This document shows positions 12,661 through 40,409 of a stretch of 48,087 nt of DNA, piece by piece. The notes beneath the pieces are model-generated. The model was not told where the DNA came from. It did no database searches and saw only the letters and a list, made by a program, of their open reading frames with translations. The stretch is from an uncultured bacterium. GTDB lineage: Bacteria; Cyanobacteriota; Vampirovibrionia; LMEP-6097. The DNA lies in NCBI GenBank assembly GCA_903930015.1, contig CAIYXB010000083.1, forward strand, positions 1-48,087, in the 5' to 3' direction. Position 1 is the first letter of the stretch, and every line of letters starts with the position of its first letter. The position numbers and the translations under genes are program-made.

Positions 12661-12729
12661 ATATCAGATAAATTTATCAAATGCTTAAATTGAGTCAGTG
12701 GATTTACTTAAGTTAATTAATATACTATA

Positions 12730-12871
12730 AAAAGTTTTCTACAATTTTTAACGACCCTTTCGCATTCGGCGCAGCTGCTGTGATGATGTTTTTGTTGTTT
12801 TGCTTCGCAAAACTTAAATGCTACATCAATCCGATATGCTCCAGGGTGTTAAAAATTTCCCGAAAACTTTT
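12730..12871 (+). repeat. Family-2 ~142-nt hairpin element, copy A (most diverged)
   Basis: Terminal inverted repeats aaaagttttctacaatttttaac and gttaaaaatttcccgaaaactttt. Shared core ctttcgcattcggcgcagctgctgtg...gttttgcttcgcaaaac...caatccgatatgct. Intergenic. Confidence 0.85.
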
Positions 12872-12986
12872 TTGGTTTGTTCTATTACTCCGCAAATGTC
12901 AACGAATTACACGACCCGTACTATTCCGAGCTTTTGAAGAAAGTGACTTAATCAATCACCGCCTAGAGAATAAGTATAAGATTTGA

Positions 12987-13472: not shown

Positions 13473-13502
13473 AAGTACAGTAAATCAGAAAAGTTTTCAA
13501 AA

Positions 13503-14483
13503 TTACTGCCGAATTCTTTGCTTGTACTCATATTTTGCACCTTCGGGATAGTACCATTTAATTAACTGACCAGTTTGACCAAGAATATAGGTTTTACCAT
13601 CAGCATATACTTTAAATGCACCAGCATTTCCACTTGCAAGAGCAAATCCAATATCATCTTTAAACTCAAATTTACTTGGTTCAATATCAGGATATGCCTC
13701 TCCTTCAAAAAGTGTCTTACCAGCTGCGATTCCATAGACTTGAAACCAAGCAACTTCACTAACTTTTAATTTTAAAGATTTCTGACCATCACCAAAAACA
13801 TAGAAAATTTGTTTCTTCACTTTGCTTTCGCTCTCTTTAGTATACAAATCAGACACTTTTGGTAATTTGATTTCTACAGAATTTTCTTTTATACTTGAAT
13901 CATTATCATCAGGATTCTCTTTTGCTTCTGAATCATCTAGAGGAAGTTCAAGATCAATTCCAATAACTTTTTCTTCAATAGCTCTAATTGGTTCTTCAGT
14001 GCTAGATACACTAGTTGAAGAACCTTTCTTTTTTAATGTTGAAAGAGTAATTATATTTTCTTGTTTTTCAATTTTTACAAATCTTTCATTCAGATTCAAA
14101 AGGTAAAAAAGACCCAATAAAATCAAAAGACCAATAAAAATATAGAGGTGATATATTTTCAAAAAACTTATATTAAATTCATTAGATTCTTCCGCAATAT
14201 GATTTTCGTTTAAAATATTTTGAACTATATACTGGCTTTCACCTTTTTTATAGTCTTCGATGATAGTTTGATAATTTTTTAAATTAAGAGCTTTAGATAT
14301 TTTATTTAAAAAACCCATCAAGTAAGCTTCTTCAGGAACAGCTTCTCTGTTAGCGTTTTCTATATTTTCGATATGGTGAACTGCAATACGGCATTTCTCA
14401 GCAAGCTCCTCTATACTAAGACCGGCTTGCAATCTTGCTTTCTTAAAAGTATCTCCAAGTGTTTTTAAGGGGTCTTCAACCAT
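13503..14483 (-). CDS. rodZ: RodZ-like cytoskeleton protein (HTH, TM helix, C-terminal DUF4115-like domain)
   Basis: N-terminal XRE-type HTH (LGDTFKKARLQAGLSIEELAEKCRIAVHHIENIE), a single TM helix (YHLYIFIGLLILLGLFYLL), an acidic linker, and a C-terminal beta-rich domain. Confidence 0.6.
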   Translation of the reverse strand: MVEDPLKTLGDTFKKARLQAGLSIEELAEKCRIAVHHIENIENANREAVPEEAYLMGFLNKISKALNLKNYQTIIEDYKKGESQYIVQNILNENHIAEESNEFNISFLKIYHLYIFIGLLILLGLFYLLNLNERFVKIEKQENIITLSTLKKKGSSTSVSSTEEPIRAIEEKVIGIDLELPLDDSEAKENPDDNDSSIKENSVEIKLPKVSDLYTKESESKVKKQIFYVFGDGQKSLKLKVSEVAWFQVYGIAAGKTLFEGEAYPDIEPSKFEFKDDIGFALASGNAGAFKVYADGKTYILGQTGQLIKWYYPEGAKYEYKQRIRQ

Positions 14484-21265: not shown

Positions 21266-21296
21266 TCTGATCACTTTGTTAATAGAGTTGTTCAAA

Positions 21297-21438
21297 AAAA
21301 GTTTTCTTCAATTTGCAACAAACCTTTCGCATTCGGCGCTGCTGCTGTGGCAAGGTTTTTGTCGTTTTGCTTCGCAAAACATGTATGCAACGCCAATCCA
21401 ATATGCTTCAGGGTGTTGCAAATTTTTTGAAAACTTTT
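21297..21438 (+). repeat. Family-2 ~142-nt hairpin element, copy B
   Basis: TIRs aaaagttttcttcaatttgcaaca and tgttgcaaattttttgaaaactttt. The core is shared with copies A and C. It lies between the convergent uvrC and recA. Confidence 0.9.
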
Positions 21439-21550
21439 CTACTTTACAATATTTGAATTCCTTTGCCAAGCCTGCAGTGAAGGAACTGGGGCTACTCACA
21501 ACAATGACAGATACTTTCTTACTTACTATAAGGTAAAATGCAGACGTTTA

Positions 21551-21581
21551 AAAAAAGGACCCACTGAATCAGTGGGTCCTT
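21551..21581 (-). terminator. Rho-independent terminator of recA
   Basis: Stem aaggacccact/agtgggtcctt with loop gaatc. On the minus strand it is followed by tttttt. Confidence 0.8.
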
Positions 21582-25864: not shown

Positions 25865-25985
25865 TACTACAGTAAACCAATTAAAAATGTCATTGCTGTA
25901 AGGGTTACGTAATACGTTGACAGTTTAAGTAGTACTCATTAACTCTAATAGCTTTATCTCAATGAATTAAACGCGACAGCCCTGA

Positions 25986-29119: not shown

Positions 29120-29216
29120 AGCTACAAGCACCAAAATAGAATGCACTGAAACTCACTATTTAAGTGGGTTTTTGTGCTTAAGTAGCAGTTCACAGAAGAA
29201 TAGTATATTAAACCCG

Positions 29217-29358
29217 AAAAGTTTTCTTCAAATCGCAACAACTCTTTCGCATTCGGCGCAGCTGCTGTGGCAATTTTTTTGTTGTTTTGCTTTGCAAAAC
29301 GAATAGGCAACGCCAATCCGATATGCTTCAGAGTGTTGCGAATTTTCCAAAAACTTTT
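29217..29358 (+). repeat. Family-2 ~142-nt hairpin element, copy C
   Basis: TIRs aaaagttttcttcaaatcgcaaca and tgttgcgaattttccaaaaactttt. The stem can be extended inward to gcattcgg/ccgatatgc. It lies between flagellin and the caspase-like gene. Confidence 0.9.
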
Positions 29359-29535
29359 CTTGTTTAATATAAGTACCAGTAGCCTAATAATACATGTGGA
29401 GTTTGATTGCAAGCTTTTACGTAACCCTCAGATTAAAAAACTTCTTTTATTAGTGCGCCCTTAACCGCTTCTTAAAAGAAATTTGTTAGTTATGTATTCG
29501 TAGAGGAGTATTTTATTCTCTACACATCTCCCCAG

Positions 29536-32317: not shown

Positions 32318-33904
32318 ATGAAAAGAAATTTGATACTTAGTCTTTTATTTTGCTTATCTACAAGCCAAGCAGTTTTTGCAAATGCAGATCATTACACCAC
32401 AAGAACTATTGATGGCAAATACAATAATATAAAAAATAAAAATTGGGGTAAATCTGGCTGTCCATTTTCAAGGTTTGCACAAGACCAGTATACAGATAAA
32501 AAAGACGGTGAAATGCCTCTAGAACATCTTCCTAATCCAAGAAGAGTCTCTAATGAAATTTTTAATCAAAAAGCAGAAGTTTTAAATGACAGAAATTTAT
32601 CCGATATAGTTTGGCAATGGGGACAGTTACTTGATCACGATATGACTTTATTTGAAGATAGTAAAGAAGAGCCAATGCCGATCGAAGTTCCAGCAGGAGA
32701 CGAAATATTTGATAAAAATTCACAAGGAAATTTAGCACTAACTTTTTTCAGATCAATTTCAAGAATTGGCACAAGAACAGAAACACGAACTCCAGTGAAT
32801 ATAAATACCTCTTATATAGATGCATCAACAGTCTATGGTTCTGATGAAACAAGAGCAAGGGTACTTAGAGACTTAAACAACAAAGGATTAATGAAAGTTA
32901 GTGATGGAAATAGATTGCCATTTAATCTTTTTGGACTCCCAAACGGTGGTGGAGCTAACAACAAAAACATGTATCTATCTGGTGATCCTCGCACAAATGA
33001 ACAAATTGGTCTTCTAACCATACATACACTTTTTGTAAGAGAACATAATAGAAAAGCAAAAGAAATAGCTGCTAAAAATCCTGAGTTAAGCGACGAAGAG
33101 ATTTACAGAAAAACTAGAGAATATGTTGGTGCACTCACTCAGCATATTACTTACTCTGAGTTTTTACCTGCCTTACTAGGAAAGGATGCCATAAAACCTT
33201 ACACTGGCTATAACAGTAAAATACTACCTTCTATCAGAAATGAATTTTCGACTTTTGCTTTTAGATTTGGTCATACAGCAGTATCTCCAACAATCAAAAG
33301 AGTTGATAACGAGGGTAAAGATCTTGGTGATATCGTTTTAATGGAATCATTTTTCAAACCTCAATTACTGTCTAGCTCCCAAGAAGTTGGTTATATAATG
33401 AAAGGCTTAGCATCAAAGAGAATGCAAGAGATTGATACAGAGGTTATCGATGGGCTAAGAAACTTTTTATTCAAAGATGTTCCTAATGAGCAAATGCGTG
33501 ACTTGATTTCAATCAACCTTCAAAGAAGTCGTGATCATGGAATTACTGATATTAATACTTTAAGAGCAAGTTTTGGATTAAAACCATATACTAGTTTTTC
33601 TGAAGTAACTAAAAATAAAGAACTTGTAGCTAAGCTTCAAAGTCTTTATGCAAAAGTTGAAGACGTAGATCCATTTGTACTCGTTCTTGCTGAAGATCAC
33701 TTACCAGGAACTTCAATGGGTGAAACTATTTCAAGGATTTTAGTAGAGCAGTTTACAAGACTGCGTGATGGAGATAGATTTTATTTTGAAAATAAATTGC
33801 CACCAGAAGAAGTCGCTGAAATAAAAGCACTTAAGTTGTCTGATATTATTAAACTCAATACACAAATTTCTAATATCCAAGAGAATGTATTTTTTGTGAA
33901 TTAG
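32318..33904 (+). CDS. Secreted animal-type haem peroxidase (peroxidase-cyclooxygenase superfamily)
   Basis: Signal peptide. Distal-His motif WQWGQLLDHD, Ca-site YIDASTVYGS, GDPRTNEQIGLLTIHTLFVREHNR, proximal-His FRFGHT. Confidence 0.9.
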   Translation: MKRNLILSLLFCLSTSQAVFANADHYTTRTIDGKYNNIKNKNWGKSGCPFSRFAQDQYTDKKDGEMPLEHLPNPRRVSNEIFNQKAEVLNDRNLSDIVWQWGQLLDHDMTLFEDSKEEPMPIEVPAGDEIFDKNSQGNLALTFFRSISRIGTRTETRTPVNINTSYIDASTVYGSDETRARVLRDLNNKGLMKVSDGNRLPFNLFGLPNGGGANNKNMYLSGDPRTNEQIGLLTIHTLFVREHNRKAKEIAAKNPELSDEEIYRKTREYVGALTQHITYSEFLPALLGKDAIKPYTGYNSKILPSIRNEFSTFAFRFGHTAVSPTIKRVDNEGKDLGDIVLMESFFKPQLLSSSQEVGYIMKGLASKRMQEIDTEVIDGLRNFLFKDVPNEQMRDLISINLQRSRDHGITDINTLRASFGLKPYTSFSEVTKNKELVAKLQSLYAKVEDVDPFVLVLAEDHLPGTSMGETISRILVEQFTRLRDGDRFYFENKLPPEEVAEIKALKLSDIIKLNTQISNIQENVFFVN

Positions 33905-38461: not shown

Positions 38462-39501
38462 AAAAAAATAAATTAAAGCCTTTCTTTATTCTAGTGTGCA
38501 GTTCAACAGAATTAAGTAATGTTGAGGGTATTTCTGCGGCAGGTGCAAATCCAGAAGCTCAAAGACTTACTCCAAGCTTAGATGCTGAATTTATAGCTCT
38601 TGGTAAAACATTATCAGCAGAAACTTTACCTGTTTCACCAGAGGGAATTATCAGCCCTGCAATTATTAGTAAAGCTTGCCTAAACCTTCTTGATGCAAAG
38701 ATAGTAGTTATAAATGCTGGTTGCTTTCATCCGATAAAAGGTTTAGACCCTAAGCAGTATTTCAATCTTGGCTTAGAGCCATCAAAAAACTTTGCAATAG
38801 AAGATTCTTTTTCTTTTGATGAATGTGAGGCAATATTCTTAGACTCACTGGAACTATTCAATAAGTTAGATTTCAACGAAGAAGAACATGAATTAATCAT
38901 TGCTGAGTGTGTAGTAGGTGGAACAACTACCGCGCTTGGATTACTAGAACTACTTGGCTATGATGCTAAAGAGCTTATATCAAGCAGCTTTAAAGACAAC
39001 AATAAAAATCTTAAAGAAAAAATCATCAATGCATTAAAATTAAGAACAAAAGAACTTGATATGAGTGAGCTTGATAACCCTTTATATAAATGCGCTATCG
39101 CTGGAGATAAAGCACAAGTAGTTATTACAGGATTAGCACTTTCTGCCATGCAAAATGGAATCAATGTAAATCTTGCTGGCGGTACGCAAATGCTTGCAAT
39201 TTATGCACTCATAAAAACCTTAACGGAAGGCTTTTTCATGGAAGAACTAATTGATGTAACAACAAGCCCATGGTTAATTAGCGACTCAAGTTCAAATGCT
39301 CTTGAGCTAGCTAATCTGATTAATGAAGACTTAGAACTAAATTACTTAGAAGACCTAACTTCAATTGAAGAGAAACTGTCAAAAGAAATTAGTAAGTTCA
39401 CAGGATATCCTGGCTGGCAAGAAATCAAAGCCTTATACAATAAAGGTTATGTCAAAGAAGGTGTGGGGATGGGAGCTCTATTAAAATTATTAGAGTTCTA
39501 A
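38458..39501 (+). CDS. CobT-like phosphoribosyltransferase homologue (UPF0284 / TIGR00303-like)
   Basis: N-terminal VEGISAAGANPE...LDAEFI and central AECVVGGTTTALGLL motifs. ATGA overlap with cobA. Confidence 0.65.
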   Translation: MKKNKLKPFFILVCSSTELSNVEGISAAGANPEAQRLTPSLDAEFIALGKTLSAETLPVSPEGIISPAIISKACLNLLDAKIVVINAGCFHPIKGLDPKQYFNLGLEPSKNFAIEDSFSFDECEAIFLDSLELFNKLDFNEEEHELIIAECVVGGTTTALGLLELLGYDAKELISSSFKDNNKNLKEKIINALKLRTKELDMSELDNPLYKCAIAGDKAQVVITGLALSAMQNGINVNLAGGTQMLAIYALIKTLTEGFFMEELIDVTTSPWLISDSSSNALELANLINEDLELNYLEDLTSIEEKLSKEISKFTGYPGWQEIKALYNKGYVKEGVGMGALLKLLEF

Positions 39502-39514
39502 TATCATAATCCAG

Positions 39515-39585
39515 AAAAGTTTTCTCCAAATTGGCAACGCCAATCCGATATGCTTCAGGGTGTTGCCAATTTTCCGAAAACTTTT
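39515..39585 (+). repeat. Family-2 element, copy D: 71-nt internally deleted form
   Basis: aaaagttttctccaaattggcaac | gccaatccgatatgcttcagggt | gttgccaattttccgaaaactttt. It fills the gap between the convergent cobT-like gene and trpC. Confidence 0.85.
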
Positions 39586-39599
39586 CTAATTTTAGGATA

Positions 39600-40409
39600 C
39601 TAAAAAATAAGCTTTTTAACTGCCTCTTCTAAATCATCCTGGGTTATCAAAGATTCACCAACCAAGAAGCCCTTAACACCTATTTGCTCAAGGAGTGCAA
39701 TATCTTGCTTAGAGGAAATTCCAGATTCACTTACAATGGTCATTCCACCAAGATCATACTTGAACTTACTAATCATTTTTGAAGTAGTATCAAGCGAAAC
39801 TTCAAATGTATTGAGGTTTCTGTTATTAATACCTACTAAATCAAAACCTAAGCTTAAAACTCTTTCCATTTCTACATCATCATGCACTTCAACAAGAACA
39901 TCCATTCCATAATCCTCAATCAAAAATTTAAAAGCTTCTAGTTTTTTATTATCGAGGATAGCTGCAATCAAAAGCACTGCATCTGCACCTGAAATTCTAG
40001 CTTGAGCTATTTGCCTCTCATCAATAATAAAATCCTTACACAGACAGGGAATATCGTATTCAGAAGAAACAAGTATTAAGTTCTCAAAACTACCTTTAAA
40101 AAAATGGCTGTCAGTAAGGACACTAAAGCAATGCGCACCACCTTGTCGATACTGTTTAGCGATTTCTAATACATCAAAATCTTCACGAAAAACACCTTTT
40201 GAAGGACTAGCTTTTTTAAGTTCTGCAATAATAGCAGGACCATTAGCTTCTCTGATTTTATTTGCAAAACCTTTTGTAACAGGCAAAGACTCTGCTTGAA
40301 TTAAATCATCAAGTCTATCTTGTAAACTTTCAAAGCTATCAAAACTTTCTAAGTCGATTAATTTTTGCGCAACAATTTTATCTAGAATTGAAGACATTTT
40401 AAGCAACAA
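39600..40409 (-). CDS. trpC: Indole-3-glycerol phosphate synthase
   Basis: IAELKKASPSKG, CLCKDFIID and VLLIAAIL motifs. The start overlaps the cysN stop by 11 nt. Confidence 0.9.
   Translation of the reverse strand: MLLKMSSILDKIVAQKLIDLESFDSFESLQDRLDDLIQAESLPVTKGFANKIREANGPAIIAELKKASPSKGVFREDFDVLEIAKQYRQGGAHCFSVLTDSHFFKGSFENLILVSSEYDIPCLCKDFIIDERQIAQARISGADAVLLIAAILDNKKLEAFKFLIEDYGMDVLVEVHDDVEMERVLSLGFDLVGINNRNLNTFEVSLDTTSKMISKFKYDLGGMTIVSESGISSKQDIALLEQIGVKGFLVGESLITQDDLEEAVKKLIF

Follow-up and report, generated by a model that had tools for sequence, protein, structure and literature searches.

Why should the two arms of a hairpin repeat change together from one copy to the next? The question arose from an earlier note on the window, that is, the whole stretch of DNA that was analysed (48,087 nt), which is ordinary chromosomal DNA (~33% G+C) with genes that include rnc, accB, efp, truB, uvrC, recA, flagellin, trpC and sulfate-assimilation genes. 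The repeat is present in this 48-kb window as four copies (A to D) and one solo end, and a further full copy (E) was located at L013:265-431, on an unrelated metagenome contig of 674 nt from another study. The four copies, with distinct inner stems and matching arms, were found as the note had described them, and copy E adds a fifth matched variant. The range 12730-12871 given for the hairpin is correct, but for copy A only; in the same reading the bodies of B, C and D were placed at 21297-21438, 29217-29358 and 39515-39585, D being a deleted copy. The features are as follows.

12716-12885, plus strand: copy A, full element; body at 12729-12872, outermost arms degenerate.
12729-12739, plus strand: copy A, left arm of the outer stem (AAAAAGTTTTC), which pairs with 12862-12872; the 11-mer is dyad-symmetric.
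12743-12752, plus strand: copy A, left arm of the inner stem (AATTTTTAAC), which contains the copy-specific 3-bp box.
12797-12813, plus strand: apical hairpin GTTTTGC-TTC-GCAAAAC (helix 5, 7 pairs, no variation).
12848-12857, plus strand: copy A, right arm of the inner stem (GTTAAAAATT).
12862-12872, plus strand: copy A, right arm of the outer stem (GAAAACTTTTT).
13476-13503, plus strand: solo end fragment (TA, then CAGTAAATCA, then GAAAAGTTTTC), flanked by CAAAA direct repeats.
21283-21452, plus strand: copy B, full element; body at 21296-21439.
29204-29371, plus strand: copy C, full element; body at 29216-29359, outermost arms TATATTAAAC / GTTTAATATA intact.
39502-39599, plus strand: copy D, internally deleted derivative; body at 39514-39586.

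Full copies measure about 170 nt, and copy A was recovered by nhmmer at 12718-12885 (E = 1e-52). All copies are intergenic, and four of the five lie at gene 3' ends. Copy A is located between two minus-strand genes. Copy B starts 18 nt past the uvrC stop, between the convergent uvrC and recA genes and beyond the conserved recA terminator (21555-21581), and copy C lies downstream of the flagellin gene and the flagellin terminator. Copy D and its outer arms fill the whole 98-nt gap (within 39499-39602) between the stops of the convergent cobT-like and trpC genes, which were probably only about 2 nt apart before copy D was inserted; in the deletion that produced this copy the GCAAC of the left inner stem was fused to another GCAAC, located in the right half. 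The solo end is a 28-nt insertion with respect to the relative L006, in a 30-nt gap between two minus-strand genes, and could represent what a deletion left behind or the footprint of an excision. Elsewhere in the window, positions 32318-33904 gave a strong match to animal haem peroxidase (Pfam An_peroxidase, E = 1e-145), which occupies the same place in relatives.

The body of the element (~140 nt) is one long rod-like hairpin, in which the outer stem is followed, going inwards, by a conserved 3-nt loop and the variable inner stem, then by three more helices and, at the tip, the invariant apical hairpin. The stem of the apical hairpin is identical in all full copies, and the sole variation is the third loop base (T in copy C). 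The outer stem (GAAAAGTTTTC / GAAAACTTTTC; in copy A, alignment columns 14-24 paired with 149-159) had been called constant, and nearly is: the right outer arm of copy C deviates (AAAAACTTTTC, with the right arm read as AAAAACTTTT) and leaves one C.A mismatch, and in copy E one base pair is gone from both arms. The inner-stem arms match perfectly in copy A (AATTTTTAAC / GTTAAAAATT), copy B (AATTTGCAAC / GTTGCAAATT) and copy D (AAATTGGCAAC / GTTGCCAATTT, 11 bp), and with one A.A mismatch in copy C (AAATCGCAAC / GTTGCGAATT). The arms had thus been quoted correctly, with the A.A and C.A mismatches of copy C left unmentioned. An internal mismatch does sit at the same position in every copy, as had been said; it is a loop, 3x4 nt in size in A to C and 3x3 nt in D and E, where T(A/T/C)C lies opposite a pyrimidine-rich TCC(C), TTCC or TTTT.

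Folding bore out the proposed hairpin. The fold of copy A is one long hairpin of -48.2 kcal/mol (z = -6.5 relative to dinucleotide shuffles), and all copies give the same fold on either strand, with the minus strand folding better by 0.7-6.8 kcal/mol in all five. In a simple terminator scan the main hairpin was not called, only a 5-bp mini-stem inside it being reported; both strands end in ..GAAAACTTTTY.., the T's of which belong to the stem. Promoter-like hexamers were noted on the minus strand, directed outward from the left end, in copy A (TTAAAA-16-TATAGT, 12724-12751) and in copy C (TTGAAG-18-TATACT, 29202-29231); their -35-like part derives from the conserved loop and inner stem, and they are consensus matches only. 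The most conserved motif, GAAAAGTTTTC, is dyad-symmetric (GAAAA-G-TTTTC), its left and right occurrences differing only in the central base (G or C), and by its symmetry it looks like a candidate binding site of a dimeric protein.

To measure covariation, the five copies were aligned by hand according to structure (A5; gaps entered as N), with the helices grouped into five for pair counting. The distal helix was picked after the sequences had been viewed, a choice that favours structure, and the entire analysis rests on five copies in two subfamilies, so that the counts given here are small. The alignment holds 59 pairs, and 217 of 226 cells (96%) are Watson-Crick. Nine pairs (13 cells) were changed on both sides and none on one side only, which upholds the observation that the arms change together. 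When columns were shuffled, 0 of 500 replicates matched the observed paired fraction, the double-change counts or the covariation score; a set of related sequences may outscore its shuffles even if no structure is present, and the measures based on pair counts are the more robust. In a slid-register control, in which the partner was shifted by 1-3 columns, at most one both-sided pair was obtained.

The double changes of the inner stem fall at columns 31/141, 33/139, 34/138 and 35/137. Columns 33-35 with 137-139 show two or three pair types each, always Watson-Crick, and they make up a 3-bp box that reads TTT in A, TTC in E, TGC in B, CGC in C and GGC in D, a one-step series that follows the copy tree. 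The signal extends beyond the inner stem. The next helix is ACTCT/AGAGT in C and ACCCT/AGGGT in the others; the distal helix splits the subfamilies, A and E having TGAT/ATCA where B and C have TGGC/GCCA; and further double changes occur in the basal part of the outer stem and in the outermost stem, where E has G-C and C has T-A. Mapped on the tree of the copies, (A,E),(B,(C,D)), the compensated events number about 10, against 9 uncompensated cells. Variable columns make up 23% of paired positions and 39% of unpaired ones. Conserved as well, and specific to one arm, are the T-N-C x TCC/TTCC and TTC x TCC/TTC loops, the single-base bulges and an 11-nt bulge of the left arm. Of the nine mismatches, five read A.C on the plus strand, hence G.U on the minus strand, and none is the reverse, an asymmetry with a two-sided probability of about 0.06.

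These data support the conclusion that the hairpin body is under selection for pairing. The claim that the folded hairpin matters is strengthened by the double changes outside the inner stem and by the retention of arm-specific loops. Because the conservation of those loops and bulges is arm-specific while the stems co-vary, selection on pairing is indicated rather than wholesale copying of one arm onto the other. The latter process, in which quasi-palindrome template switching or short-patch conversion would match the arms by mutation with no selection on pairing, is considered quite unlikely. It would fit the clustering of changes in adjacent bases on both arms (e.g. TT/AA against GC/GC), the lack of one-sided (G-U type) intermediates on the plus strand, the stem of copy D, perfect and one pair longer than in the other copies, and the outer stem of copy E, shorter by one pair on both arms. 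Arm matching should however erase loops and bulges, and the TCC x TCC and TTC x TCC loops, the 1-nt bulges and the 11-nt bulge all stay arm-specific; nine mismatches remain uncorrected; and the series TTT, TTC, TGC, then CGC or GGC, follows the phylogeny as ordinary stepwise compensatory evolution would.

A second alternative takes the arms as double-stranded binding sites of a transposase, with the inner-stem variants reflecting transposase variants that co-evolve with their own repeats. One protein binds both ends of a transposon, so that sub-terminal sites can vary by sub-family, and the outer 11-mer GAAAAGTTTTC has the dyad symmetry of a protein binding site. Recognition of an inverted repeat in double-stranded DNA nevertheless cannot explain compensation, because a complementary change elsewhere does not rescue an altered binding site. 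Five variants in five copies would moreover require about five specificities, covariation is also present in four other helices deep inside the element, and it is the terminal 13-mer described below, not the variable box, that is common to two repeat families. This explanation is judged very unlikely.

Conservation could also have arisen from coding constraint, were the element to encode a small protein. The open frame of the element was translated and searched against protein collections for spurious gene calls. The search gave P0121 (L013:181-435), through which copy E was found, and P0122, from a 15.9-kb contig, which is a translated left half-copy broken off at the apical loop; a concatenate of the other five frames, searched against proteins, and an exhaustive HMMER search yielded nothing further. 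One frame (..PFAFGAAAV..FLLFCFAK..NPIC.RVL..) is fully open in A and C, and to the last two bases in E; the ORFs of public gene callers run through copies (P0121, P0122); and the three variable bases, within GCN GCN, are third codon positions. Against coding, the frame has no fixed start or stop and its ORFs enter unrelated flanks at differing lengths, copy B stops six codons before the end, copy D is without half the frame, and the differences between A and E are mostly amino-acid-changing. No family beyond P0121 and P0122 was found among the 5.8 and 1.8 billion proteins searched. A coding role is scarcely credible.

The true ends of the element were sought by aligning ten arms (five left arms and five reverse-complemented right arms). 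A terminal inverted repeat, TA/YAKTAAACCAA, was found at each end, ~13 nt outside the outer stem. The stem that had been called terminal is therefore not so, since the palindrome runs ~13 nt further outward on each side. The outermost arms are 13/13 paired in copy E (TATAGTAAACCAA) and 10/13 paired in copy C (TATATTAAAC / GTTTAATATA). The remaining copies (A, B, D) have a degenerate outermost stem, and of these A and B still have a paired body despite their decayed terminal repeats. The earlier contrast between the covarying arms and the terminal repeats of transposons holds for selection on pairing, but true terminal inverted repeats do exist further out. TA is present at both borders in five of five copies and at the larger-family element of L006; it is palindromic and could belong to the repeat.

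The terminal 13-mer (TATAGTAAACCAA or TATATTAAACCAA) recurs as the inverted ends of another repeat, ~610 nt long, which occupies the recA/uvrC spacer in L006 (L006:11267-11876), and, at position 25868 of the window, as the left terminus of a truncated repeat. This second non-coding family (..AAACCAATTAAAAATGTCATTGC..GTTACGTAATACGTTGACAGTTTAAGTAGTA..) is found in the window at 25868-25985 (truncated) and at 12884-12930, with other forms in L010-L012. Since two structurally different non-coding families have one terminal repeat in common, as is usual for elements that a single transposase moves in trans, we infer that both are mobilised in trans by one unseen transposase. No transposase gene is encoded in the 48-kb window, and no autonomous element with matching termini is present there.

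Movement was assessed by comparison with recA-centred loci (up to ~21 kb) of eight relatives with RecA 87-99% identical, which span sites A, B and C. The element was absent from all eight loci by BLAST and by nhmmer at maximum sensitivity; the junctions at these sites were either free of any insert or occupied by other repeats. Site C measures ~280 nt in the window and 12 nt in the relatives; the ~270 nt missing is more than the element alone, and ~130 nt of extra unrelated sequence surrounds the element in the window. Site A carries a different repeat of ~420 nt in L006. At site B the strains differ over the entire spacer, although the recA terminator is conserved: the spacer from that terminator to the uvrC stop (21266-21554) is wholly unlike L006:11195-11928 and L011:9600-10167 despite RecA identity of 98-99%. 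No clean empty site with a target duplication was found among the relatives' loci examined. Intergenic DNA in this lineage is turned over by repeat insertion far faster than its genes diverge.

The closest named RecA homologues were from MAGs of Cyanobacteriota, Melainabacteria and Obscuribacterales (70-80%), and metagenome proteins reached 87-99%. The host is accordingly taken to be a probable relative of cyanobacteria that is uncultured, flagellated and non-photosynthetic. A recA identical to that of the window was found in another sample (L023, ERZ27280202), on a 1430-nt contig that ends ~195 nt past the recA stop; this end fits assemblies that break at repeats.

Outside these loci the hairpin family is rare in public data. 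Scans of a genome collection with two DNA patterns gave no match with the first and 9 chance matches, in GC-rich organisms, with the second; a pattern scan of a metagenome collection gave 5 chance matches in microsatellite-like DNA; and viral contigs gave none with either pattern. BLAST of copy C against plasmid and phage collections returned no match, and nhmmer at maximum sensitivity detected no further copies in 253 kb of sequence. Against Rfam 15 the whole window had no match at gathering thresholds, so that the element is no curated RNA family by that score, and copy A searched at E up to 10 gave chance-level matches only.

The element is read, from its sequence features, as a new family of small non-autonomous mobile elements of the MITE type. 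It is small and non-coding (98-170 nt; no ORF with a consistent start and stop in six-frame translation), it has terminal inverted repeats (13/13 in E, 10/13 in C), and its dispersed copies are present or absent between related genomes. Compensatory changes between conserved ends, a property of REPINs (cf. PMC3116915), are found as well. By sequence it is not a REPIN or REP-RAYT element: its end motif is AT-rich (GAAAAGTTTTC), the GTAG or CGTC tag is absent, and no RAYT (Y1 transposase) gene is present in the 48-kb window. An integron attC identity was also rejected, the AAC/GTT lying mid-hairpin with neighbours unlike RYYY or RRRY (core RYYYAAC/GTTRRRY), the copies being scattered among housekeeping genes and integrase being absent from the window. 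Retron-like and ribozyme readings were set aside, with no reverse transcriptase nearby and a match to Hairpin-meta1 at E = 1.8.

Several known repeats behave similarly. The bcr1 repeat of the Bacillus cereus group (~155 bp; Klevan 2007, Kristoffersen 2011) is transcribed, and compensatory changes keep its double-stranded RNA fold (PMC3184786). Like the present element it is a small non-autonomous mobile repeat whose genomic positions are not conserved between close strains; it differs in its host phylum and in its 5-bp direct-repeat flanks, where TA is found here, and a likeness in sequence is not expected. REPINs have conserved ends with a pairing-only stretch between them in which compensatory changes are common, and have been proposed as a replicative unit that acts via a single-stranded hairpin (Bertels and Rainey 2011; PMC3116915). 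They consist of two GC-rich REP palindromes and are linked to a RAYT gene; the element described here has an AT-rich motif, no REP-type tag, and true terminal inverted repeats with TA flanks outside the hairpin body.

In Enterobacteriaceae and Neisseria, the MITEs known as ERIC/IRU and Correia elements are transcribed together with genes and influence mRNA stability via RNase cleavage (PMC3184786). Like the present element they are intergenic imperfect palindromes, 100-160 bp long, which have terminal inverted repeats, are bordered by TA on either side and often lie at gene 3' ends; they differ in host lineage and show no sequence kinship (no Rfam or BLAST match). Correia hairpins are cleaved by RNase III. 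Nezha (Zhou 2008) is a cyanobacterial MITE of 130-170 bp with very stable predicted hairpins and with filled and empty sites between close relatives (PMC3184786). It resembles the present element in its Cyanobacteriota host and terminal inverted repeats, and also has flanking direct repeats; its repeats are common to the insertion sequence ISNpu3, whereas the element here has no known autonomous partner and a non-photosynthetic, Melainabacteria-like host, and the work on Nezha was not directed at covariation. Covariation itself is thus already documented for bcr1, REPINs and ERIC-type repeats; what is new is this family.

There remains the form in which the hairpin is selected, for which RNA is the more likely single-stranded candidate. 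A MITE-type family with selection for pairing on the RNA or at the level of the host is the reading that we favour, at about even confidence. Selection would keep the single-stranded form paired, with most stem positions also fixed in sequence, and the 3-bp box of the inner stem, needing only to pair, would drift through matched variants. The selected form would be RNA made by co-transcription of the element at gene 3' ends, and the RNA hairpin might end or insulate transcripts, or be cut by a double-strand RNase. Hints in this direction are the bias to A.C mismatches (G.U on the minus strand) and the better minus-strand fold, the retention of the body in A and B despite decayed termini, the location of four of five copies at gene 3' ends, and by analogy the precedent of bcr1 and ERIC (PMC3184786). 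Orientation with respect to the flanking genes is inconsistent, copy A being antisense to the others and the better-folding minus strand of copy C being antisense to both neighbours, and is thus a poor fit to a simple one-strand RNA role.

The orientation that all four window copies share fits a single-stranded DNA or replication-linked mechanism at least as well, agreement among four copies being expected by chance 1 time in 8. In such a mechanism the hairpin would be needed in single-stranded DNA for movement, as in RAYT-mobilised REPINs or IS200/IS605 ends, only copies with paired arms would be copied, and the covariation would reflect selection on transposition, not host function. We regard it as possible, though clearly less probable than selection on RNA or at host level. 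The layout is REPIN-like, with conserved end motifs followed by a pairing-only stretch (PMC3116915); the strand that tolerates wobble is the minus strand, which is G-rich over most of the window; and the inner-stem variants mark subfamilies at unrelated loci (A and E), which implies that some compensation predates insertion. GC skew and gene orientation are mixed along the window and gave no assignment of replication strands. Conventional terminal inverted repeats with TA, common to a structurally different family, suggest instead recognition of double-stranded ends; a GTAG/CGTC-type REP motif is absent, the window has no Y1 or HUH transposase gene, and A and B retain the hairpin body though their termini have decayed.

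A more specific proposal, which we hold to be rather doubtful, is a hairpin-dependent mobile unit of single-stranded DNA, REPIN-like but unrelated to REP/RAYT and driven by a putative enzyme. If it were true, the arm-specific loops would be recognition features and the 3-bp box a pure spacer, and the uniform orientation and the wobble bias of one strand would be signatures of lagging-strand-template transposition.

These repeats have practical consequences in public data, where they break assemblies, as with the identical recA on a 1.4-kb contig in another sample, and seed spurious 'hypothetical proteins' (P0121, P0122). The hairpin represents a new and structurally well-defined repeat family in an uncultured lineage that has been little studied, the Melainabacteria-like Cyanobacteriota. 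As a case it is compact: covariation is visible from five copies, and pairing is maintained in the body of a mobile repeat even in copies with decayed termini. Should further copies bear this out, the family would offer a convenient system in which to ask whether such a hairpin is kept up for its own spread or for use by the host at the 3' ends of genes.
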